Position numbers and translations under genes: made by a program
Notes under the pieces: generated by a model
The model's input: only the letters and a program-made list of their open reading frames with translations
Told to the model about the DNA's origin: nothing
Databases searched by the model: none
IMG/VR virus record: IMGVR_UViG_3300006928_000001
Span: 32,001 to 96,000 of that record
Strand: one strand, 5' to 3'
DNA from: a virus
Length of the DNA: 64,000 nt
In this document: positions 754 through 48,959 of the stretch, one piece after another
Position numbering within the stretch: the stretch's first letter is position 1
Layout of the letters: every line of letters begins with the position of its first letter

Positions 754-972
754 TTACTCCTGCGCTTGTTCAACAGCAGTCTCAAGATAAGCCTTGGCTG
801 CGATGAACTCTTCACTACTGGTATGGGCGTCTAGGTACGTTGCGAGATTATCGTACAATTCTGGCTGTTCGTCACTATTAGTAATATGGTACTGCGTAAT
901 CATAGCCATCAACTTCGGTTTATTTTCCGTGTCAGCGAAGTGATCTACAATCGACTGCATCAACGGAGTCAT
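754..972 (-). CDS. hypothetical protein
   Basis: ATGA overlap with upstream gene; same strand as operon. Confidence 0.6.
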   Translation of the reverse strand: MTPLMQSIVDHFADTENKPKLMAMITQYHITNSDEQPELYDNLATYLDAHTSSEEFIAAKAYLETAVEQAQE

Positions 973-1907
973 CCTGCAATCTCCTTGGCGTCAGCTGGAA
1001 CACGAACCTTCCAGGCAATGTTGCGAGCCGCCTCGGGATGCATGGCACTGAACACACACGACAAAGTGTGTGGACTATGGTAGTTAGCCAGACGATTCCA
1101 GATTTCAATCTCCTTATCATCCATAGCACGAAAAAGATTACGAAGATTACTGAATGTCCCGTACTCTTCCATCACCTCACATCCGCGCTTTTCAAAAGCA
1201 CGACGTAGTTCAGACCGCTGCCATTCATAGATGTGGTTCTTGGCGATGAATCCGCCATTGACTGGCGTAGACAACAGAATCATCCCATCTGCACCATCCT
1301 CGCGCTCAGGCTTGCGGCGCGCATAACGAACCATTCCATCTAGGAATCGCTCGCCGTCAGGCTTGTCCATGTGCTCAAGTACTTCAAAGGAAATGACGAC
1401 GTCAAACGTCCAATCAGGAACTTTCTCCGGCTCGTCAACAGCATTCGTCTTACTGAGAATCTTGGTCTCAATGCCGGAAACGCGTGGACGGTACTTGATT
1501 TGATTCAGGTCTACGGCGCAATACTGCGAAGGCTTGTAGTGCTTAACGGCGCTATGGTCGCAGGTAAGCGTACGGAACAGAGGAATTTCTTTGCCACATC
1601 CCATTTCCATGATTCGAACGCCGGCTCCAAAGTGTTCCTTAACGACCTTCATCGGAAAACCATACCTGATTGCGTGAGCTAGGTAGTCACGTCCAATACG
1701 GTATGCCTTCTCAGGGGAAAGATGAGACTTATCGAACCGATTATCATCGGATCGTTCAGTTGGTGCAGCCCGGCTATGCGTCTTCTGTTCAAAGTACGGC
1801 TCAGCTTCCTTTACCGGCAGCCAATTATGCTCACCATCATCACCAGGCTCTGCCTCTCGGCGAAACTGACCGGTTCGAAGACAAACAAATCCTACGACGT
1901 CACTCAT
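969..1907 (-). CDS. class I SAM-dependent methyltransferase
   Basis: Motif I IMEMGCG, motif II YCAVD, FDVVISFEVLEHM, LLSTP, H.YEW. Confidence 0.8.
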   Translation of the reverse strand: MSDVVGFVCLRTGQFRREAEPGDDGEHNWLPVKEAEPYFEQKTHSRAAPTERSDDNRFDKSHLSPEKAYRIGRDYLAHAIRYGFPMKVVKEHFGAGVRIMEMGCGKEIPLFRTLTCDHSAVKHYKPSQYCAVDLNQIKYRPRVSGIETKILSKTNAVDEPEKVPDWTFDVVISFEVLEHMDKPDGERFLDGMVRYARRKPEREDGADGMILLSTPVNGGFIAKNHIYEWQRSELRRAFEKRGCEVMEEYGTFSNLRNLFRAMDDKEIEIWNRLANYHSPHTLSCVFSAMHPEAARNIAWKVRVPADAKEIAG

Positions 1908-1975: not shown

Positions 1976-3766
1976 CTAGTTCGCTGGTGGGCGCTCTTGC
2001 GAAGATTCTTCGTCATCAGAATTCATCTGATCGATCTTACTGTTGACGGCGTCAAGGGCTTCTTGAGCCTGATTCTTGAATTCGCTGACATCAAAATCGT
2101 CTGGCAACTTAACGCTAAAGAGCTTCGCCATCATCTCTGGGTTCTCAGCATTCAGAATCGCTTCGACAACCATAAGTGGAACGTCACCCCACCAAAGATC
2201 AGTAGGCTTGTAGTCTCCACCAGTTGCGCTAGAGAACACGCGAGCAGCCTGATTGATGGACACACCGCCAAGCTGACCAGTAACACTGGTAATACCAGCA
2301 GCGGGTTCATTGTCTCCCCACTCTGGAGATTCGATTACGATCTTCCACTTAGTGATACCCATCTCGATAAGAACACGGTCTAGAAACGCCATACGTTCTT
2401 CGTGGTGCGGTCCAAACCTCAAGCGATTTACTACTGCCCATGCTGCTGATGCCGTGGCAAAATTGTACGAGTCAGACCGTCCAAGTAGAACAGCTGGAAT
2501 ACGTTCTGCTTCAGAGAACCTTGCGGCTAGACTATCCTGTAGTCCTGATTGGTCAAGAAGCTCCTTAGGTAGCTTGGTACTTAGCTCATGGAGCACAAGC
2601 TTGCCACGGTCATCACTGTTGTTACCAAATGGCAACTGACCATTCATATTTGCAGCAGAATCAGATGGCATCAGTGATAGAGTAATCAGTGATGCAAGCC
2701 CTTCACGGCCGCGACCAAGTGTATCGATCTTACTTACTGCAGAATTTGCTACAGCATCATCAAACGGGCGGTTAGCCGCGGCAAGGATTACACTGTGTAG
2801 ACCGGACTTGAGGTAGCTAAGCACGAGCTTAACATGCTCTTCAGCAGCAGTAGCCGCGTTCATTTCAGAATGCCACCCACTCCATCCGTACGGGTATGCT
2901 CCAGGAAACGACGTGCGCCAAGCCATAACTTCAGTCGCGGGTGTAGCACCCTTGGGTAGGGCTCCCGGCTTGTACTCTCCAGGTTGACCTGGCTTAAGAG
3001 ACGGTCGATGTCTATTACCGGTAGAGTATTTTCCGGTCTTAGCGTCCATTGCACGCCAATCACCGTATTCCTTGAACCAACGAGATCTACCACCGGACAG
3101 GGAGACCTTAAGCCGTCTAAAATGCCGTGGTTCTTCAATCCAGTAAATCGTACCGTCTTCAAGAGCTACTGGAACAGGAACCTTTGTTGCTGCTTGGTCT
3201 GGCTTGGACCATTCGGCATTAACAGCTTCAAACCTAGCGAATCCACGTGGCTTGGTAGGCATCGTCTGCTTAGCCTTACCCACGTAGGTTTCGCGGATGA
3301 CTACCACGCCACCCCAACCGAGGATTACGCGATCAAGCTCTTGTTCCTTGAAGCCAGCACGCAGTGACTTAGCACCACGTCCCAAGAAACCAGTTTGAAC
3401 AAGTACCTGAAGCCGGTTACGTTCTTCACGTACTTCCGGCTTCCAAGTCTTAGGCTTATCAAGATCGAATTTATCATCCTCCATCATGTTTACGTCAAAT
3501 CGCGGTTGTACCGAGTAGTGTGTTCCAGCACAACCTTCAGCGACGACGTGACAGACAGCCATCAGAGCACCGTTCTGCTTAACCGCATGCAGAACTAGCT
3601 TTGGATCAATTGGCTTACGAGTCATTGCTCCAGTAAACATCTGATTGATGTCGCCTGGCTCAGAACCGGGAAGTTCACCCGGCCGATACTGCAGATTGAT
3701 GCTCTGCGAGCCGAGAATTACCGCGGCTTCAGAGGCGACGTAATCAGGCATTGATCGATTCTCCAC
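1976..3766 (-). CDS. phage portal protein (PBSX/HK97-like)
   Basis: 596 aa; ELDRVILGWGGVVVIR, FKEYGD.R, and RIPAVLLGRSDSYNFATASAA, typical of the portal C-terminal P.LLG....N.ATA motif. Confidence 0.7.
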   Translation of the reverse strand: MENRSMPDYVASEAAVILGSQSINLQYRPGELPGSEPGDINQMFTGAMTRKPIDPKLVLHAVKQNGALMAVCHVVAEGCAGTHYSVQPRFDVNMMEDDKFDLDKPKTWKPEVREERNRLQVLVQTGFLGRGAKSLRAGFKEQELDRVILGWGGVVVIRETYVGKAKQTMPTKPRGFARFEAVNAEWSKPDQAATKVPVPVALEDGTIYWIEEPRHFRRLKVSLSGGRSRWFKEYGDWRAMDAKTGKYSTGNRHRPSLKPGQPGEYKPGALPKGATPATEVMAWRTSFPGAYPYGWSGWHSEMNAATAAEEHVKLVLSYLKSGLHSVILAAANRPFDDAVANSAVSKIDTLGRGREGLASLITLSLMPSDSAANMNGQLPFGNNSDDRGKLVLHELSTKLPKELLDQSGLQDSLAARFSEAERIPAVLLGRSDSYNFATASAAWAVVNRLRFGPHHEERMAFLDRVLIEMGITKWKIVIESPEWGDNEPAAGITSVTGQLGGVSINQAARVFSSATGGDYKPTDLWWGDVPLMVVEAILNAENPEMMAKLFSVKLPDDFDVSEFKNQAQEALDAVNSKIDQMNSDDEESSQERPPAN

Positions 3767-5046: not shown

Positions 5047-6006
5047 TCACGGCTTCGTACCATCTCGCTTGCACAAGCGATAAAACGGGCAACGCTCACA
5101 TACAGACGGGTCGTCAGTTGCTTCAAACTTATCACGGATAGGGATGTTTTGGTCTAGATCACCATCTTTCAAGCGATCGGCCAGATCTTCGGCAAAGAGA
5201 TCGATGATCATCCCAGTTTTTTCGATGTCTTCATCGGTGATGCGAAAATGATCTACTTGCACGTTTTCTTGACTGATGTATGGAATTACAGAATGGACGG
5301 ATGACCATCCAAGACCGTTAGCCCACATTCCGTACAGTTTAGCTTGTAGTTTGTCTTTCTTACGCTTGCGGCCAGTCTTCCAATCCACTACTATGACAGA
5401 GTTATCACTACCACGAATAACCAAGTCCATAGCTACCCAGACTCGTAACCCTGACCTTCGAAAAGACATCAAATCTTCGACCATAACTATTTGCCTGTAG
5501 TTATTGATCGCGTGTCGCAATATGTTCCTAGTCTCATTACCAGTATCGGCTTTGTACCAGGAGTTATCCTTCGCTAAAGAGTGTAATTTTTGCTGTATCC
5601 GCAGCCAGACATTCTCCCAATTTACCGGTTCGCCGTCAATAATTTCTGATAGCTGTAGCCTATGCTTCGGATTGCCAGAGTGTTGATTTAGAGCTTGGTC
5701 TTGCCCACGTGCGAACATACTTCGTGCGTGGGCAAGCATCACCGGTTCTATGTCACTAAACTTACGGCCTTGCCTAGCTTGATCGAGGATATGCTGTGCA
5801 GCCTTATGGATGATTTTTCCTGACCATGATGGTATCGTCTCAATAAACTTAGCCTCGTAGTTCTCCTCAGCTGTTCTGTCAGATGGAGGCTTATTACCAC
5901 GCCACCACCCACCCCATGAAGCATAAGTCCACCGATAGTATTTCAGTGGACACTCTGCAATCATCGTTGCTTTAGAGAATGAAAACGATGCTTCGTTCTT
6001 AAACAC
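5047..6006 (-). CDS. PD-(D/E)xK nuclease, RecB/Cas4-like exonuclease
   Basis: N-terminal SFS...CPLKY, G...H, D-LV...VVDWKTG, QAKLY, C-terminal CERCPFYRLC (Fe-S cysteines). Confidence 0.85.
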   Translation of the reverse strand: MFKNEASFSFSKATMIAECPLKYYRWTYASWGGWWRGNKPPSDRTAEENYEAKFIETIPSWSGKIIHKAAQHILDQARQGRKFSDIEPVMLAHARSMFARGQDQALNQHSGNPKHRLQLSEIIDGEPVNWENVWLRIQQKLHSLAKDNSWYKADTGNETRNILRHAINNYRQIVMVEDLMSFRRSGLRVWVAMDLVIRGSDNSVIVVDWKTGRKRKKDKLQAKLYGMWANGLGWSSVHSVIPYISQENVQVDHFRITDEDIEKTGMIIDLFAEDLADRLKDGDLDQNIPIRDKFEATDDPSVCERCPFYRLCKRDGTKP

Positions 6007-7295
6007 TATGCAGCCTCAGACTCGCTAAGTGGCATCTTGATATCGGGGTGCCGCTTAGCCCACCAGGCTTGACGCTCCTTTAGAGACATCTTAAGCGAGA
6101 GACGTTCTCCACGACTACGCCAGTCAATCGCCTGCATCCAAGAGTTACGGTGACTTGGCTCACCAGTTAAAGCCGGAACGGTTCGTACTCCTCGTCTAAT
6201 ACCATCTGCCAAGACTCTACCCAAAAATGCGGCATTATGCGTACACAGCCCGCGACCAATTTCGGCATACGCCTTAGACTTTGGTGAGAACTCGTAGTCA
6301 AGCGGAAACCCCATGATGGTTGCACACTCACGCGGCGTGAGATACCTGTCTTCTACTGGGTGGATGACGGTATGGCCGCCTAGAATATTCGGTGATGGTC
6401 GATCAAGGCGACCACGGGTGTGCGTGAATCCCGGCCTAGAAGAACCATTCCATTTTGCGCCACGAGGCCGATAATGCTTATGCATCAATTCATCTGCCAC
6501 TTCACGTAGATGTGATCCTGGAGGGCAGTACGGCATAATGGACCTGAACGCACCAAAGTAGGTATTCTTGTTGTTAGGAAGATCACCACCGTTTTTTACG
6601 AGCTCTAGTGCGTCTCCAAGAGTCTTGGAACCAAGATTGTCTGCAGATTCGTTATTGTAAACGCCACGCCAATCTAGATCGTATTTACTAGCTACGAAAT
6701 GGAACCTTCGTCGATCTTGGTATCCACCATGAATAGCGGATGTCGTTAGAAACGCATAACACCTGTATCCAAGGGATCTTGCTCTAAAGGCCATCGCGTC
6801 TAGAAAGCTACGTTCCTTGCTAAAGATTGCTGGAACTAGCTCCCAAGTCCAGATGTCTGGCTGAAGACGGAATGCTGCCTCGTACGCTACGTACCGTGTG
6901 TAGCACATTCTGTCATCACTAGATCCTTCGTGCTTCCCAGGCCCAGCATAGGCTACACACGGCGGATTCGCATAGAAAATACGAGGTACATTACCCGCAC
7001 TCTTTAGCTCATCAATGAATGACAACCAATCTTCTCCGTTAGTGGACCTGTTAAGATACCCGTCTTTGAGAGGGATATTAGCAACCGGCCAACGTTGGCG
7101 TGACACGTTGCTACCTAAGTCTAGATCAGGTAGCTCTAGATGACCAGCAACGTTAATTCCAGCCTGCTCCATACCAAGACTGAAAGCTCCAGCAAAAACG
7201 CATGCACCCAGAGCAGTGACTTCGTTACGCCCAGCTTCTAGTTCAGCATGAATTGCGTCCATTTGTTCGCGGTTAGACAATGGAAGATACGACAT
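6006..7295 (-). CDS. cytosine-C5 DNA methyltransferase-fold enzyme, paralogue 1 (atypical cofactor pocket)
   Basis: Motifs I CVFAGAFSLG, IV NPPCV, VI WELV, VIII QDRRR, IX RYLTPREC...GFP, X EIGRGL. Confidence 0.85.
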   Translation of the reverse strand: MSYLPLSNREQMDAIHAELEAGRNEVTALGACVFAGAFSLGMEQAGINVAGHLELPDLDLGSNVSRQRWPVANIPLKDGYLNRSTNGEDWLSFIDELKSAGNVPRIFYANPPCVAYAGPGKHEGSSDDRMCYTRYVAYEAAFRLQPDIWTWELVPAIFSKERSFLDAMAFRARSLGYRCYAFLTTSAIHGGYQDRRRFHFVASKYDLDWRGVYNNESADNLGSKTLGDALELVKNGGDLPNNKNTYFGAFRSIMPYCPPGSHLREVADELMHKHYRPRGAKWNGSSRPGFTHTRGRLDRPSPNILGGHTVIHPVEDRYLTPRECATIMGFPLDYEFSPKSKAYAEIGRGLCTHNAAFLGRVLADGIRRGVRTVPALTGEPSHRNSWMQAIDWRSRGERLSLKMSLKERQAWWAKRHPDIKMPLSESEAA

Positions 7296-8083
7296 TAGTA
7301 GCCATCCTTCTGACGCTTGAAGTTAATGTCGTTCTTATGCATGAACGCGTAGTATAGATGGTCAAGTTTAACGCCTGGAATAGCCTGTGCGCAGGCACAG
7401 ATTTCAGGCATCAGCGTAAAGTAAATGAACCCAGATCCGGGTGGAAACTTGTGAGGATTTACAGCACCATTACTAACAAGAATCTGTTGGCGAATAGCCG
7501 CTGCAGTATCAACAAGTAGCTGACGTAGATAGTTAATCCTGGCCGCTACCTTTTTCTCCCAATCCTCGCCATGTGCTCCGTCAGCATGACTGAACATACT
7601 ATAGATTGCAAGGTTCGGACCCTGTCCATTACGTTCAGCCAGAGCCCAAGCAAAGTCAAGACCAAACGCAGGTACCTGCACTTGCATGGCGCTAGCTGTA
7701 ACTTTTGCCACAAGCTCCCGCTCAGGTTGTCCGCCCATGAAAAGATATGCGTTGACGACGAAGTGCATCACGTCGACAAGCTCCATGAGCAACTCATCTT
7801 TGTCGGCTTGAACAGGGTTAGACTTATGGTGCTTCCATCCACCTTCCACCATGTCCCAAGCTTCACTAGCCTCTTGGACACCCATATCAAGATGGTGGAT
7901 AACCCTACGTGGAAGGCAGAACGTCTTCTTGCCGAAGTCTTTCAGCCTGGAATCGTATGACCCAACCAGAGTCTGAAAATCCATCTGTCGCTTAATGATT
8001 TTTGCCTGGTGATCAATCGACCAGTCAAGTTCATCAAATTCGGTGTCGATGGAGAATTCATCGGCACAGTTCTGCACTTTCAT
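7295..8083 (-). CDS. dimeric (all-alpha) dUTPase-like NTP pyrophosphatase
   Basis: QEASEA...WKHHK, ELLMELVDVMHF, C-terminal KNDINFKRQKDGY. Confidence 0.8.
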   Translation of the reverse strand: MKVQNCADEFSIDTEFDELDWSIDHQAKIIKRQMDFQTLVGSYDSRLKDFGKKTFCLPRRVIHHLDMGVQEASEAWDMVEGGWKHHKSNPVQADKDELLMELVDVMHFVVNAYLFMGGQPERELVAKVTASAMQVQVPAFGLDFAWALAERNGQGPNLAIYSMFSHADGAHGEDWEKKVAARINYLRQLLVDTAAAIRQQILVSNGAVNPHKFPPGSGFIYFTLMPEICACAQAIPGVKLDHLYYAFMHKNDINFKRQKDGY

Positions 8084-9675: not shown

Positions 9676-12528
9676 CTAGAACCCCATGTCCATCTTCGTA
9701 GGCTTTGGAGGGTCTTTCTCCATTTCACGAAGAAGATTCATGAATTCTGACGTCCAAACCATAGCCGTGTTACGGCTATTTTCTTGATCGAAGAAAGCTG
9801 CTCCGTTACGTGCCATCTGTGTGATGAACATTCGGGCTTCATTCCCGTCAAGTCCTAGAACCATCCCGATGCTATTGGGATTGACTCGGCGTAGATCAAG
9901 TAGAGCTCTACACGTATTACCAACGTCACCAGGGTCTACATCGACGATAGCAGCAATTACTGCTTCTGTATCCAACTTCTGGCGTTTCTTGTACTCACTG
10001 AACTCTTTATAGCCCAGTTCACCGTCGTACGCACAACGCATAACCCGTTCAGCAAATTCTACGTGGCACCGACGGACGTAGATGATGTTAGGGTCATCGT
10101 CTTTTACCGAGAATGTCCGTGCAGCACTTGCTACAGCTAGGCGCGCTATTTTTAGGTCCTGTTCTGCGGGTTCTACCAATGGCATAGAGTGATCGTACTC
10201 TTTCGCCATAGCCGCACCACGTTTAGCCGCAAGGTTTTCAGCTCCATCTTCCCATTCGACGTGGGATTCAGTTCTTGACCAGGCAAACCTGACTAGAGCC
10301 CTTCGTAGTTCTACGAGCGCAGGGTAGGGTTGTTCGCCAAGCTCTTGGTCAGCGGCTTCTTTATCTAGACCCTGCTTAACGGCGCATGCAAAATCAAAAC
10401 GCGCTACGTCTTCTGGCGTTCCGATAAGATCCATGATCGCTTCAACTGGTGTTCCGTATGACGATAGCATTCTGCCCAAACCACGTGGGTTACCAGCCAT
10501 AATGATTCTAGTTCTAGCTGGTGTTGAAGCATTACGAATCTTAGTAATTTCTGCGATCCCACTAGACCGCATCCCAGACATCTTAGAGATATCGTCTACG
10601 CTTAGTGAACTAGCTTCGTCAATCGTGACGAGACCACGGTCATTAGTAGGAACAAGTCCCCAAGTAACGACCCATGACTTATCACCACTCCCTACCTGTT
10701 GAAGACCACCAACGATACCGGCGTACGTAGTATTAGCGGGGTCCATGACGTACTTTCCTAAACCAAAGTATTGAGTCATGGTGTTCATTGTTTCTGACTT
10801 ACCTGTACGTGTATCACCGATTACGCAAAGTGACAACCATCCACGAGCTGGAACTTTACCACGATACTTGAATCGGATCACGCTATGGTACGTTAGATCG
10901 ACTAGTCTGAGCAGATTATTACGTCCAAACACCCCTGTGACGTGTCGAGACAGGCTTTTTTCTTCGGCTATCATTACAGCGTCAATAGAATCTGCTGTCC
11001 ATTGACGTGGATTGAACGTTTCCTTGAGAGACTGGGTCATCTCTTCGTCAAGGGTAAATGAATCGATATCATCTTCAGCAGGTATTGCGTCTGAGCTAAC
11101 CAATGTCCATTCGTTCGTCAAAACGTCAGGTTCAATTTTTCCGTAAAAATGGTACAACTGATTAGATCTGATTGGTGGTGTTCTACCATCCGCCGGACAG
11201 ACGTACATGGCAGCTCGCATCGTACTATCACCACCATGGCGCTCAGACATTGGTGGGATCAACTTAAGGTGCTGAATTTGCCAGTGACCGTCCATCTTGA
11301 ACTTGACCATTGGACAACGTCCAGGGATTCCTGCCTTACGCCTAAACTCATTCTCTTGTTGCCTGGAGTTCATGACGGCCAAGTTCATGAGCATCTCTGA
11401 CTCAGCATCAATCTCGACGCGAAGTGATCCAGCTGTTCTCATGACGGGGCAAGCAGCACACTTCTTTTCGTCCCAGTTCATATGGCACTTGACTTCAGCC
11501 AGTTGTGGAACTAGAACAGGAATCATGTTTGTACCGAGTACGTGGGCTTTAACCGAGATGCTTTCCTTTGGAACGCCACCACCAAGCTTTACTGGTAGCG
11601 GGGGTGGTGCTTCTTCTTGGTCTTTTTTGCCTTCCCACTGGTCATTTGCTAGCTTCTTGAACCAAGAAACGCTACGCTTATCCTTAAGAATAGCGTCGCT
11701 GAAGTCTTTGAAGTTAGGGTCAGACAACGAGAAGTCTAGATGAAGAGCTTCAACATCATTGGTTACCAGTCGTGACCTAACGGTACGAGCCCCTCTTCTT
11801 CCAGGAGTATCGATGTCGTAGCATAGCACTACTTTCTTACCACGGACTATGTTAAGAACATCTGCTGTCCAGGTTCCAGCACCACCTGTGATCAGCAAGG
11901 TCGGAAGACCTTGCTGGGCCGCTAGAATTCCGTCTGGCTCACCTTCGAACATCCATACTTCATCCGCCTTTTCGATAGATTCGAAGCCAAACGGAATCCA
12001 TACAGCTTTACGGTTAAGCCCTTCATCATTGGCGTAATGAAACGACTTAACCGTTGATCTTTTGAACGGGTCGTACATACGCGCGTTGATAAGTTTACCA
12101 GACTGATCGCGAATCGGTATCCAAAGATGACTACCGTCCCAGCCGATCAAAAGCTTTTCAATCGTAGCCTTAGTCCATCCCCGCTTACGTTCTAGGTCTG
12201 TTACGACCTGAGGAGAGTCGACTAGGATACGATGGTATCGTGCAATCAAATCCTCAGACAGAGGGGGCAAGTCGCGTAGAGTTACAACTGTCCCAGCGGA
12301 CTGAGGAGACTTGACAAACACGTCAAGTGGCGGACCATCATCTCTCGATGATGCTCTGCACCGATGACACCGGTAGTATCCAGTGTCGATGTTTACACGC
12401 AGAGATGGCCGCTCATCTGGTCCACAAGCTGGACACTTAGCCGTCGCCCAACCATTGGACGAGGCTTTAGTTTGGTCCAGCCCAAGAGCCGTCAGAGCGG
12501 CGTTCAGCGCAGCTGCTGAGAGCTTCAC
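9676..12528 (-). CDS. Zn-finger/Toprim primase fused to MCM-family AAA+ helicase
   Basis: CPAC...CHRC; Toprim FEGEPDG and YDIDTPG; MCM-like GDTRTGKSE, T.AGIVGG, GLVTIDE, RTRIIMAGNP, ARFD. Confidence 0.85.
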   Translation of the reverse strand: MKLSAAALNAALTALGLDQTKASSNGWATAKCPACGPDERPSLRVNIDTGYYRCHRCRASSRDDGPPLDVFVKSPQSAGTVVTLRDLPPLSEDLIARYHRILVDSPQVVTDLERKRGWTKATIEKLLIGWDGSHLWIPIRDQSGKLINARMYDPFKRSTVKSFHYANDEGLNRKAVWIPFGFESIEKADEVWMFEGEPDGILAAQQGLPTLLITGGAGTWTADVLNIVRGKKVVLCYDIDTPGRRGARTVRSRLVTNDVEALHLDFSLSDPNFKDFSDAILKDKRSVSWFKKLANDQWEGKKDQEEAPPPLPVKLGGGVPKESISVKAHVLGTNMIPVLVPQLAEVKCHMNWDEKKCAACPVMRTAGSLRVEIDAESEMLMNLAVMNSRQQENEFRRKAGIPGRCPMVKFKMDGHWQIQHLKLIPPMSERHGGDSTMRAAMYVCPADGRTPPIRSNQLYHFYGKIEPDVLTNEWTLVSSDAIPAEDDIDSFTLDEEMTQSLKETFNPRQWTADSIDAVMIAEEKSLSRHVTGVFGRNNLLRLVDLTYHSVIRFKYRGKVPARGWLSLCVIGDTRTGKSETMNTMTQYFGLGKYVMDPANTTYAGIVGGLQQVGSGDKSWVVTWGLVPTNDRGLVTIDEASSLSVDDISKMSGMRSSGIAEITKIRNASTPARTRIIMAGNPRGLGRMLSSYGTPVEAIMDLIGTPEDVARFDFACAVKQGLDKEAADQELGEQPYPALVELRRALVRFAWSRTESHVEWEDGAENLAAKRGAAMAKEYDHSMPLVEPAEQDLKIARLAVASAARTFSVKDDDPNIIYVRRCHVEFAERVMRCAYDGELGYKEFSEYKKRQKLDTEAVIAAIVDVDPGDVGNTCRALLDLRRVNPNSIGMVLGLDGNEARMFITQMARNGAAFFDQENSRNTAMVWTSEFMNLLREMEKDPPKPTKMDMGF

Positions 12529-46479: not shown

Positions 46480-46710
46480 GAGGAGTAGTGCAGTCAGTTA
46501 CAATACAATTTGAATACGAGACACGTATCCTCACTGCCGAAGGCATCCAGGAAATGGAAAACGAGTCAGGATGGTCACTTGTGTCAGCCAGTGTGCTTGA
46601 CCCAGATAAACATGAGCAATTCATCAAATGGGTTTGTCTTGTAAGACGTCCCATTGTACGTAACACTTTGACGCTTGACGCAATTCGTGAAATGAAGAGG
46701 AGTCACTCCG

Positions 46711-48513
46711 ATGAACAGTCGTAACTTGAAGCCCAGCGACCAGCTGGAGATGATCGCGGATAACATCCGTACCGGCAATAAGGCCGGTGAAATCACAGCC
46801 CTTGGAGCCTGCGTGTTCGCTGGTGGGTTTAGCTTCGGCTTGGAAGAAGCTGGGTTGAAGGTGTGCGGGCATTTTGAGCTCACTGACCTTGAGCTAGGTG
46901 CAGAGACTTCGGCAGCGAAGTGGCCTGTTCTAGTGGCTCCGCTGGAGAAGGGGTACGAGCCGAATAGTGCGTTTCCTACTGACCCCACGACCTGGCAGAG
47001 TGCTATTACGTACCTGAAGGATAACGACGCCATCCCTCGGGTGATGTTCTGCAATCCCCCATGTGCTGCTTTCGCCAAGAATGGTGCTCGTGGTGGCATG
47101 GATGATAACGACAACATGTGTTACAGTCGTTACGTCACCTACCAGCTATGTATGAAGATTCAGCCGGAAGTGTGGATGTGGGAGCTCGTGCCTGGCATCT
47201 TCGAGGATACCAAGGATGGTGGCCGTGACTTCCTCGACAAGATGGCTGAGGAGGCTCAGGCCAACGGCTATGAGGTTCACTACTTCCTGACCTCCGCTGC
47301 TCACCACGGTGGGTACCAGAATCGTCCTCGGTTCCACTTTGTGGCCTCCAAGGTAGGTCTGGACTGGGCTGGTACCTACAAGGAGGATGGAGATGAGCAT
47401 AAGGGGTGGAAAACGCTAGGAGAATGCCTTGATAAGCTCGAGCAATACATCGCAGAGAACGGCCCAGTGCCGAATCATGAAGGTGAACGCATCTCTGGAG
47501 GGGCACTCCTGGACATTATCCCGTTTTGCCCGCCCGGTGGCTACCTCCGGGACGTCAAAGACGAACTCATGGAGAAGCATTATCGGCCCCGTGGACAGCC
47601 GTGGAATGGTCAGAGTCGTGCCGGTGTGACACAGTTGCGCGGTCGTCGAGACCGTACTAGTCCAGTCATCATCGGTGGTCACACAGTTATTCATCCTGAG
47701 AAGAACCGTTTCCTTACGATCCGTGAATCCGCAGCTGTTATGGGTTTCCCGTACGACTACCAGTTCAGTCACGGTAGCAAGGGCTACGCAGAAGTCGGCA
47801 AGGGACTCTGTACGCACAACGCTAGGTTCCTTGGTCTGACGGTGAAGACTGGCATCGAGCTTCAGGAAGCTGGTAACGGCATTACGGTCGACACGACCAA
47901 GGTGCACGTCGTTGACTGGCGTGGCCAGGTCAAGGTTCCTAGTCAGTCCTCTACTGACGAGGAGCGAATCGAGTGGTTCAAGAAGCGTCACCCTGAGTTG
48001 GACCCGCAGCTTGGTTTGGCTCGGCCTAAGCGTGGGCCTGGTCGCCCGAAGGGTGGTAGTTCGCGACGTGGTCGTCGTGGCCGCGGAGGTCCTAAGACTG
48101 TTCTCATTATCGGTGACAACGAAGAGCTCCAGGAAACCTTGGAGAAGATGGAGTTTAACGTCGAGATGGATGACCTCGACAACATCGAGATGGACGACCT
48201 TCCTGAGGTTCTCGGTAAGGCGGGGCGCTCTCACTGCATTGTCGTGAGGGGGCCTTCCTGGGATACACAGGAGTTTATGGTTCTCGGTGCGTGTCTGGCT
48301 CAAGGGACGCGACTGGTTCTGTACAACTTTGCAGGACTTCCGGAAGGAGTCCCGGATCATGCGTCTATTACCGTGTCTGGTAAGAACAAGACGACGGCTG
48401 TGGCACCAATTATCGCGCAGGCTCTTGGTATGAGTGCCGAGGATGTGCTTAGCAAGATGATGGAAGGGCAGGATGCTGCATCTCTCCTGGCGAAGCTGTT
48501 GGAGGCGTCGTAA
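46711..48513 (+). CDS. cytosine-C5 DNA methyltransferase-fold enzyme, paralogue 2, with AT-hook/RG linker and C-terminal alpha/beta domain
   Basis: CVFAGGFSFG, NPPCA, WELV, QNRPR, RFLTIRES...GFP, EVGKGL; then KRGPGRPKGG..RRGRRGRGG. Confidence 0.85.
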   Translation: MNSRNLKPSDQLEMIADNIRTGNKAGEITALGACVFAGGFSFGLEEAGLKVCGHFELTDLELGAETSAAKWPVLVAPLEKGYEPNSAFPTDPTTWQSAITYLKDNDAIPRVMFCNPPCAAFAKNGARGGMDDNDNMCYSRYVTYQLCMKIQPEVWMWELVPGIFEDTKDGGRDFLDKMAEEAQANGYEVHYFLTSAAHHGGYQNRPRFHFVASKVGLDWAGTYKEDGDEHKGWKTLGECLDKLEQYIAENGPVPNHEGERISGGALLDIIPFCPPGGYLRDVKDELMEKHYRPRGQPWNGQSRAGVTQLRGRRDRTSPVIIGGHTVIHPEKNRFLTIRESAAVMGFPYDYQFSHGSKGYAEVGKGLCTHNARFLGLTVKTGIELQEAGNGITVDTTKVHVVDWRGQVKVPSQSSTDEERIEWFKKRHPELDPQLGLARPKRGPGRPKGGSSRRGRRGRGGPKTVLIIGDNEELQETLEKMEFNVEMDDLDNIEMDDLPEVLGKAGRSHCIVVRGPSWDTQEFMVLGACLAQGTRLVLYNFAGLPEGVPDHASITVSGKNKTTAVAPIIAQALGMSAEDVLSKMMEGQDAASLLAKLLEAS

Positions 48514-48959
48514 TGGCTGACTTTTGTCATGACTTCGACCCTGGTGGTCTCGGTGGGTATCACCCGTTAGGCGATTTTTCTTGGGCTCTTGAAAAGTGGG
48601 GATCGAAGCTAAAGGTGGACGAATTTGTTAGACTTGGTCTTTGCGAAGGTCATGGATGCGGGGTTGCCCTAGAGAGGCACGAAGATGGTTTAACATTAGT
48701 CCACTACGAGTTTTCCGACTTCCCTCTTACAGATGGTGAAGAAGTTCCTCCACCAAAGAAGATTCCTGAGTCGTTTACAGTGACTCCTGAAGTCATACTA
48801 GAGGTTGAAATACAGAATTTTACTCAGCAGATGCTAGTTCAGCAAATTAGTGAGGGGCACTTCGACGAAAATCTTGATCACGTACTAAAGGTGGCGGATA
48901 AGTTCGAGCGGTATGAAGTTGTTGAGGCTGTTCATTCGCGTCAGGAGAAAATTCAATGA
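48513..48959 (+). CDS. hypothetical protein
   Basis: TAATG-coupled to the MTase; DFC...LCEGHGC. Confidence 0.6.
   Translation: MADFCHDFDPGGLGGYHPLGDFSWALEKWGSKLKVDEFVRLGLCEGHGCGVALERHEDGLTLVHYEFSDFPLTDGEEVPPPKKIPESFTVTPEVILEVEIQNFTQQMLVQQISEGHFDENLDHVLKVADKFERYEVVEAVHSRQEKIQ

Follow-up and report, generated by a model that had tools for sequence, protein, structure and literature searches.

The open reading frame (ORF) at positions 46711 to 48513 encodes a protein with the fold and the intact catalytic residues of a DNA cytosine-C5 methyltransferase (C5-MTase) and with a rebuilt cofactor pocket. It lies in a 64,000-nucleotide stretch of viral DNA, hereafter called the window, which comprises bases 32001-96000 of the complete 107,823-bp record IMGVR_UViG_3300006928_000001 (terminal repeats of 123 bp). 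The opposite arm carries a shorter paralogue, and we refer to the two proteins as the long and the short paralogue (Table 1). Against PF00145 the long paralogue scores 70 bits and the short one 66 bits (cut-off, 22 bits); the match above the curated cut-off, together with the fold, places the long paralogue in this family. Its AlphaFold2 (AF2) model, built on 48 relatives, has a mean predicted local distance difference test (pLDDT) score of 92.2, and the best solved structures found with Foldseek are C5-MTases, namely HaeIII, DNMT1/MET1, 3g7u and, at rank 17, 8yf3, the structure of SpCmoX from Synechococcus phage S-B43. An initial annotation, made from the sequence, had given the extent of the protein as 46711-47940. 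The start holds and the end does not, as the ORF runs to 48513; the shorter extent covers the first 410 residues and omits the last 190.

The start of the long paralogue overlaps an upstream 78-residue ORF by 14 nucleotides (nt), and its stop codon shares the letters TAATG with the start of the next ORF, an overlap that suggests translational coupling. This downstream ORF (48513-48959, plus strand, 148 residues) begins within the stop codon and has no family match; its position after the long form is not kept in L009, a related 100.7-kb phage genome. A scan for promoters and terminators around the long-paralogue gene found none over shuffled expectation. The DNA of this phage comes from marine metagenomes: 24 sequencing runs contain it, all of them marine DNA metagenomes of 2017, with no RNA run among them.

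A C-terminal extension of about 170 residues, which the short paralogue lacks, consists of a basic linker and a globular domain. The AT-hook-like G-R-P-x-G core of the linker is kept in 16 to 18 of 22 long forms. Structural neighbours of the C-terminal domain in the ESM Atlas have TIR, receiver, or nucleoside-deoxyribosyltransferase-like folds (template modeling [TM] scores of 0.59-0.68). In the long forms this domain has almost no conserved polar residues, the exception being Asp588, and we therefore give it no catalytic role.

Table 1 Features of the long paralogue and other genes discussed in the text (window positions, unless marked as genome positions)
Feature	Position	Strand	Basis
Long-form paralogue of the rewired C5-MTase-like family, whole ORF, 600 residues	46711..48513	+	ORF list, PF00145, AF2 model
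Shine-Dalgarno-like AAGAGGAG, good match, 8 nt before the ATG of the long paralogue	46695..46702	+	Sequence reading
Motif I region, residues 32-43 (GACVFAGGFSFG); canonical F-x-G-x-G-G replaced by C-V-F-A-G-G	46804..46839	+	Ungapped alignments to SpCmoX and the YongM MTase
Motif IV, residues 113-122 (FCNPPCAAFA); catalytic Cys118 (codon 47062-47064), then Ala119 for canonical Gln	47047..47076	+	Alignment
Motif VI, residues 156-163 (MWELVPGI); Glu158 retained, Asn of ENV replaced by Leu159	47176..47199	+	Alignment
Motif VIII, residues 199-211 (HGGYQNRPRFHFV); QxRxR intact (Q203-R205-R207)	47305..47343	+	Alignment
Variable (target-recognition) region, residues 212-334; clade-specific segment AGVTQLRGRRDRTSPVII	47344..47712	+	Alignment
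Motif IX, residues 335-347 (LTIRESAAVMGFP)	47713..47751	+	Alignment
Motif X, residues 359-371 (YAEVGKGLCTHNA); Lys364 (codon AAG, 47800-47802) for canonical Asn	47785..47823	+	Alignment
Basic linker, residues 432-462; 11 Lys/Arg in 31 residues, pLDDT low at 452-459	48004..48096	+	Sequence, AF2
C-terminal alpha/beta domain, residues 463-600, flavodoxin-like	48097..48510	+	AF2 (pLDDT ~90), strand-helix alternation
Short-form paralogue, 429 residues, motif X Arg, opposite arm	6006..7295	-	ORF list, PF00145, BLASTP
dUTPase_2-type all-alpha nucleoside triphosphate (NTP) pyrophosphatase, directly upstream of the short paralogue	7295..8083	-	Profile match, lineage context
ThyA homologue, 458 residues, Asp at the E. 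coli Asn177 position	genome 30605-31981 (L002:12605-13981)	-	Profile scan, alignment
Class I S-adenosylmethionine (SAM) methyltransferase, Methyltransf_23, Hen1-like EVxEH motif	969..1907	-	Profile match, PDB sequence search

Aligned to HaeIII and SpCmoX, the long paralogue retains the complete PF00145 catalytic set, Cys118, Glu158, and Q203-R205-R207. The canonical cofactor-pocket set (FxGxGG, PCQ, ENV, and GN) is absent, with CVFAGG, Ala119, Leu159, and Lys364 found instead. Three independent alignments put Lys364 on the canonical Asn: those with HaeIII ("iGNav"), with SpCmoX (R350), and with the methyltransferase of Nostoc phage YongM ("VGNAVPP"). The initial annotation had read PCA and G-K at these sites, and both readings are correct, as NPPCAAF is present and the AAG codon lies at 47800-47802; the residue also stands, as claimed there, at the position of the engineered Lys in M.MpeI N374K. 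In M.HhaI, Gln82 and Asn304 adjoin the transferable group, and replacing the former (Q82A) lowers methylation about 16-fold, while N304A gives the greatest gain in extended-group transfer (PMC3526304). Both of these residues are replaced in the long paralogue, Gln82 by Ala119 and Asn304 by Lys364. Because the pocket residues are altered, we regard the protein as a structural member of the C5-MTase family in which methyl-transfer function cannot be assumed.

The core family consists of 48 close relatives with E values below 1e-80, drawn from a search of 5.8 billion proteins, and every one of them comes from uncultured sequences. They form two size classes, long forms of about 545-740 residues and short forms of about 395-465 residues. 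The catalytic Cys is present in 47 of the 48 proteins, and Glu158, Arg205, and Arg207 are invariant. The same holds for Glu56 of motif II, which binds the cofactor ribose, and for F36, G38, and F40 of the motif I region; the variable region carries the family-invariant elements CPPG, HYRPRG..W.G, and GG..xIHP. At motif X the residue is Lys or Arg in all 48 relatives and never Asn. The two paralogues of the window share 47% identity over 435 residues (BLASTP; E value of 3e-139), and their alignment contains all of the shared strings listed in the initial annotation. The view taken there, that the protein is a further and intact copy whose cofactor pocket has been rewired, is borne out.

In a quick FastTree estimate with more distant relatives as the root, all short forms group in one clade (support, 0.87) nested within the long forms (supports, 0.72-0.99), which points to an old duplication and loss of the C-terminal module by the short form. 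Lys is the ancestral state at motif X, and at least nine switches between Lys and Arg have occurred, across both paralogue clades. This pattern suggests selection for a cationic side chain at the site; Lys does not set the long paralogue apart, contrary to the emphasis given to it at the outset. In the segment before motif IX each clade retains its own version; the difference between the two paralogues close to the target-recognition region, noted at the outset, is real and conserved within each clade. These clade-specific segments are compatible with different target sequences for the paralogues, and it is plausible that the two proteins have two sequence specificities or act in two time windows. 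The proposal that they form a heterodimer is without support: the predicted complex of the long and short methyltransferase domains scored 0.00, a value that weighs neither for nor against binding.

In L009 the paralogues stand in tandem, with the long form at L009:11284-13134 and the short form at L009:about 10001-11215. The long form there reads NPPY, with Tyr for the catalytic Cys, and the short form is intact. The L009 contig, the single locus from the genome contig scan, sits in a "Myxococcales" metagenome-assembled genome bin, which is weak as host evidence. The scan of metagenome contigs for further loci gave three short loci. In another related record, 85% complete, only the short copy is seen.

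The core family belongs to a much wider lineage. A family profile search against 1.84 billion representatives recovered 17 core clusters and then, after a gap, a large outer lineage; at least 305 clusters (50% identity) match the profile at an E value of 1e-30 or below. Of the 138 best-matching representatives outside the core, 131 have NPPC, 114 have Ala directly after the Cys, and 135 lack the Asn of ENV. Motif X is Arg in 58, Lys in 44, Gln in 28, and Asn in 2 of these 138; counted as either without the canonical Asn or without any residue at this site, there are 135. Two canonical sequences in the same alignment show PCQ, ENV, and GN at the corresponding sites, which validates the alignment columns. 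The lineage is marked by the pattern NPPC-Ala / E-[S/L/C]-V / G-[R/K/Q], and the long paralogue carries these three pocket substitutions together (NPPCA, ELV, and GK). A tblastn search of cultured phages with the long paralogue and one lineage representative returned only canonical methyltransferases, such as the YongM enzyme (PCQ/ENV/GN). L022, a viral contig of the wider lineage, carries two rewired transferase copies in opposite orientation (L022:2302-3330, plus strand, and L022:5407-6435, minus strand), both with Gln at motif X.

We read the gene context of relatives with the core family in the source genome (G000), in the related 91.8-kb record G001, and in the L009 contig, and we took neighbour counts from 84 loci; 80 IMG/VR loci of the wider lineage were fetched. 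A ThyA homologue lies within 10 kb of the lineage gene in 59 of the 84 loci, and in 57 of these 59 it has Asp at the position of E. coli Asn177. A PRA-PH/MazG NTP pyrophosphatase is found in 54 loci, directly adjacent and on the same strand in about 45. Other recurrent neighbours are a deoxynucleoside monophosphate (dNMP) kinase (53 loci), PolA (52 loci), an SNF2-type helicase (51 loci), and a deoxycytidine monophosphate (dCMP) deaminase (39 loci).

The source genome carries the same neighbour set, including a ThyA homologue with the Asp and a pyrophosphatase that abuts the short paralogue; the long paralogue stands apart in the other arm. The dUTPase_2-type pyrophosphatase gene is the counterpart of the PRA-PH/MazG gene beside the wider lineage. 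The best cultured relatives of the ThyA homologue are those of Stenotrophomonas phage AXL3 and Pseudoxanthomonas phage PW916. Asp at this ThyA position marks dCMP-specific enzymes (PMC8670742), and such homologues can yield 5-methyl-, 5-hydroxymethyl-, or 5-hydroxy-dCMP (PMC13326640). Together, the dCMP-type ThyA, the NTP pyrophosphatase, the dNMP kinase, and the dCMP deaminase suggest that cytosine may enter the DNA with its C5 already occupied.

SpCmoX (PDB 8YF3) makes 5-carboxymethylcytosine from carboxy-SAM (Cx-SAM) (Yang et al., Nat Commun 2025, PMC12783734). In phage S-B43 a phage-encoded CmoA provides the Cx-SAM, and the product is subsequently ligated to glycine by CmoY; Arg350 of SpCmoX, at the position of HhaI Asn304, contacts the Cx-SAM carboxylate, and the wild-type enzyme, a monomer, accepts Cx-SAM and not SAM (PMC12783734). 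Natural DNA carboxymethylation by CmoX was first reported in December 2025, with a census that required SPPC and Arg350 and that counted 2251 ligases against 5615 CmoX proteins, so that ligases are present for part of the set only (PMC12783734). Given these requirements, the NPPC-Ala lineage would have been left out. The long paralogue resembles SpCmoX in its C5-MTase fold, in being encoded by a phage, in having a small residue rather than Gln after PPC, and in its cationic motif X residue. Our family profile aligns with SpCmoX over 307 columns (hhalign; probability of 97.3%, E value of 2e-11), with Lys364 falling on Arg350 and NPPCAAFA on SPPCSAFS.

However, SpCmoX is only about 22% identical to the family and no nearer to it than HaeIII or HhaI, and 8yf3 matches the short paralogue with an E value of 0.44 (phmmer). 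The Ser-Pro-Pro-Cys that defines CmoX is Asn-Pro-Pro-Cys in the long paralogue, and Arg350 is literally Lys, though the site is cationic and Arg-interchangeable in the family. Unlike SpCmoX, the proteins described here are two paralogues, one with a C-terminal module, and they occur within a dCMP-modification module. Neither a co-occurring CmoA nor a neighbouring CmoY-type AMP-forming amide ligase was found; searches of the source genome and the lineage loci with SpCmoA (blastp, phmmer, and tblastn) and with SpCmoY gave no match. The long paralogue is outside the CmoA/CmoX/CmoY system and belongs to a separate lineage.

Engineered enzymes offer further comparisons. M.MpeI N374K and M.MedI N377K are carboxymethyltransferases (PMC12015181) and have Lys at the identical motif X position. 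They are otherwise canonical (PCQ, ENV, and FxGxG), methylate with SAM, and target CG, whereas in the phage enzyme further pocket positions are altered and the change is natural and ancestral. The M.HhaI variant Q82A/N304A (Lukinavicius et al., NAR 2012, PMC3526304) is replaced at the same two conserved positions as the long paralogue, and its methyl transfer is lower and its pocket opened for larger groups; it has Ala at both sites and works with synthetic cofactors, whereas the phage enzyme combines Ala and Lys. The canonical M.HaeIII (1DCT), M.HhaI, and YongM enzymes share the fold, the catalytic Cys, the motif VI Glu, QxRxR, and motif IX with the long paralogue, but their PCQ, ENV, GN, and FxGxGG are all altered in it.

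We hypothesize that the long paralogue is a DNA cytosine-C5 transferase whose transferred group exceeds methyl in size and is more polar or anionic, the donor being a sulfonium cofactor derived from SAM. We put this explanation forward as the best one, tentatively, and rate its chances somewhat below even. The proposal of a larger group follows from the altered pocket, that is, from Ala119, Lys364, Leu159, and motif I. The fold, the intact catalytic residues, the residue equivalences, the Lys or Arg throughout the family, and the gene context are shown by the data, and we infer the transferred group, the cofactor, and the action on phage DNA as parts of this explanation. The reaction would most likely follow the covalent C5-MTase mechanism, in which the target cytosine is flipped out and Cys118 attacks C6 while Glu158 and Arg205/Arg207 hold the base; the bulkier, polar group would then be passed to C5 from the SAM-derived sulfonium cofactor, and the basic AT-hook linker would probably tether the enzyme to DNA. 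We know of a single natural candidate for the transferred group, carboxymethyl donated by carboxy-SAM. As the phage has no CmoA, the cofactor would come from the host or would be one not yet described.

A number of observations weigh against this explanation. The main conflict with a simple C5 alkylation is that C5 may be occupied beforehand by the products of the ThyA pathway. In 20% of the wider lineage motif X is Gln, which cannot make a salt bridge, and motif I and ENV, unaltered in SpCmoX, are changed here, so that the cofactor site is unlike that of CmoX, too. CmoA (TIGR00740) is absent from the complete source genome, from G001, and from 49 wider-lineage records, 17 of them at least 90% complete, in a search that recovers SpCmoA in S-B43 at an E value of 2.5e-34. 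A ligase of the Asn-synthase type (PF00733) is likewise absent from the source genome and from all 50 related records at the cut-off, and TET/JBP is absent from the source genome. Use of carboxy-SAM, toward which the initial annotation pointed, therefore finds no backing in the genes of this complete genome or in the 49 and 50 related records searched for CmoA and for a CmoY-type ligase. Nor can carboxymethylation be read from the Lys alone: M.MedI N377K supplied with SAM gives over 99% protection and full methylation (PMC12015181), and since the engineered Asn-to-Lys enzymes still methylate with SAM, Lys is not diagnostic by itself.

The long paralogue could also be an ordinary SAM-dependent 5-methylcytosine (5mC) methyltransferase with an odd pocket, serving as a post-replicative back-up for cytosines that escape nucleotide-level replacement through ThyA(Asp), where it could assist a 5mC pathway that works on nucleotides; we consider this rather unlikely. 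The activity that M.MedI N377K keeps with SAM (PMC12015181), the failure of the CmoA searches of the genome and the 49 records to find a special cofactor synthase, and the invariance of the ribose-binding Glu56 all speak for it. So do the best cultured relatives of the ThyA homologue, which belong to Stenotrophomonas and Pseudoxanthomonas phages that we take to be related to the 5mC phage XP-12. Yet the Q82A change alone costs M.HhaI about 16-fold in methylation (PMC3526304), and SpCmoX, with Arg at the motif X site, does not use SAM (PMC12783734). Moreover, four altered pocket positions are held over hundreds of clusters, which would be hard to explain if methyl transfer were under selection.

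The occupied C5 has a different place in a further alternative, which we judge unlikely, namely, that the enzyme acts on cytosine that is already substituted at C5 (5-hydroxymethylcytosine [5hmC], 5-hydroxycytosine, or similar) by the ThyA(Asp)/NTP-pyrophosphatase/kinase module and carries out a post-replicative hypermodification. Covalent activation of C6 by the Cys would then allow the group at C5 to be replaced by another or lengthened, and an anionic co-substrate or leaving group would be bound by Lys364. The frequency of the ThyA(Asp) homologue near lineage genes and of the directly adjacent, same-strand pyrophosphatase is in line with such a substrate, as is a source genome without CmoA, TET, or an Asn-synthase-type ligase; Pfam and PHROGs scans covering part of the source-genome ORFs also found no glycosyltransferase. 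Work from the Klimasauskas laboratory reportedly shows that C5-MTases can, in vitro, add aldehydes or take them away and couple thiols at 5hmC; we know of no natural precedent. The conservation of the ribose-binding Glu and of much of motif I, however, suggests that the enzyme still binds a nucleoside cofactor. Part of the association with ThyA may also stem from shared ancestry within one phage group, whose common replication module consists of PolA, SNF2, AEP primase, and Pam3 gp32-34-like genes.

It is very improbable that the long form is mainly a non-catalytic, DNMT3L-like DNA-binding or regulatory partner of the short form. In favour of such a role, the tandem pair of L009 consists of an intact short form and a long form in which Tyr replaces the catalytic Cys, and long forms have added DNA-tethering and globular modules. 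Against it, no catalytic residue is lost in this ORF or in 21 of 22 long forms, the short form derives from an ancestral long form, and SpCmoX is a monomer (PMC12783734).

The class I methyltransferase at 969-1907 accompanies the family elsewhere. Close homologues, 53-80% identical to it, were recovered from contigs that agree in recorded length with core-family contigs; one homologue is fused to a rewired C5-transferase in the 834-residue protein P0058 (31% identity over 250 residues), and others are found beside lineage members or close to them in four additional loci (e.g., L041/L042:11210-11872). Its best PDB sequence relatives are Hen1 2'-O-methyltransferases, with which it shares an invariant E-V-x-E-H and a later His, and in Foldseek a number of class I methyltransferases score almost equally, with CmoM at the top. 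We discarded the protein as a CmoA analogue (hhalign to SpCmoA, probability of 0.3%). The 596-residue protein encoded next to it (1976-3766, minus strand) was considered as a ligase or synthase and looks like a portal protein instead, with a score of 0.97 for portal by language-model features, a TM score of 0.65 for the predicted structure, and no Pfam or PHROG match. Its gene lies in the arm that carries the replication and nucleotide genes, flanked by those for the class I methyltransferase and for an AAA ATPase.

By analogy with the conversion of cmo5U to mcmo5U in tRNA, O-methylation by the 969-1907 protein as a second step is an attractive idea. It would be part of a more speculative scheme, to which we assign a low probability. 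Here, an undescribed cytosine modification would arise either from a novel SAM-derived cofactor or from the rebuilding of a 5-substituted cytosine delivered by ThyA(Asp), the paralogues would cover different contexts, and the Hen1/CmoM-like enzyme would O-methylate the new group.

In summary, the long paralogue represents a lineage, unstudied so far, in which the cofactor pocket of an intact C5-transferase is more deeply rebuilt than in CmoX. At motif X, Lys and Arg both occur naturally and can stand in for each other, and Lys364 is a family trait. In the records searched, the lineage travels with a nucleotide-level cytosine-replacement module and not with a Cx-SAM synthase or ligase. Its members could provide enzymes of natural origin for labelling DNA and for the chemistry of 5mC sequencing. 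Whichever chemistry holds, the lineage indicates an uncharacterised layer of phage DNA modification.

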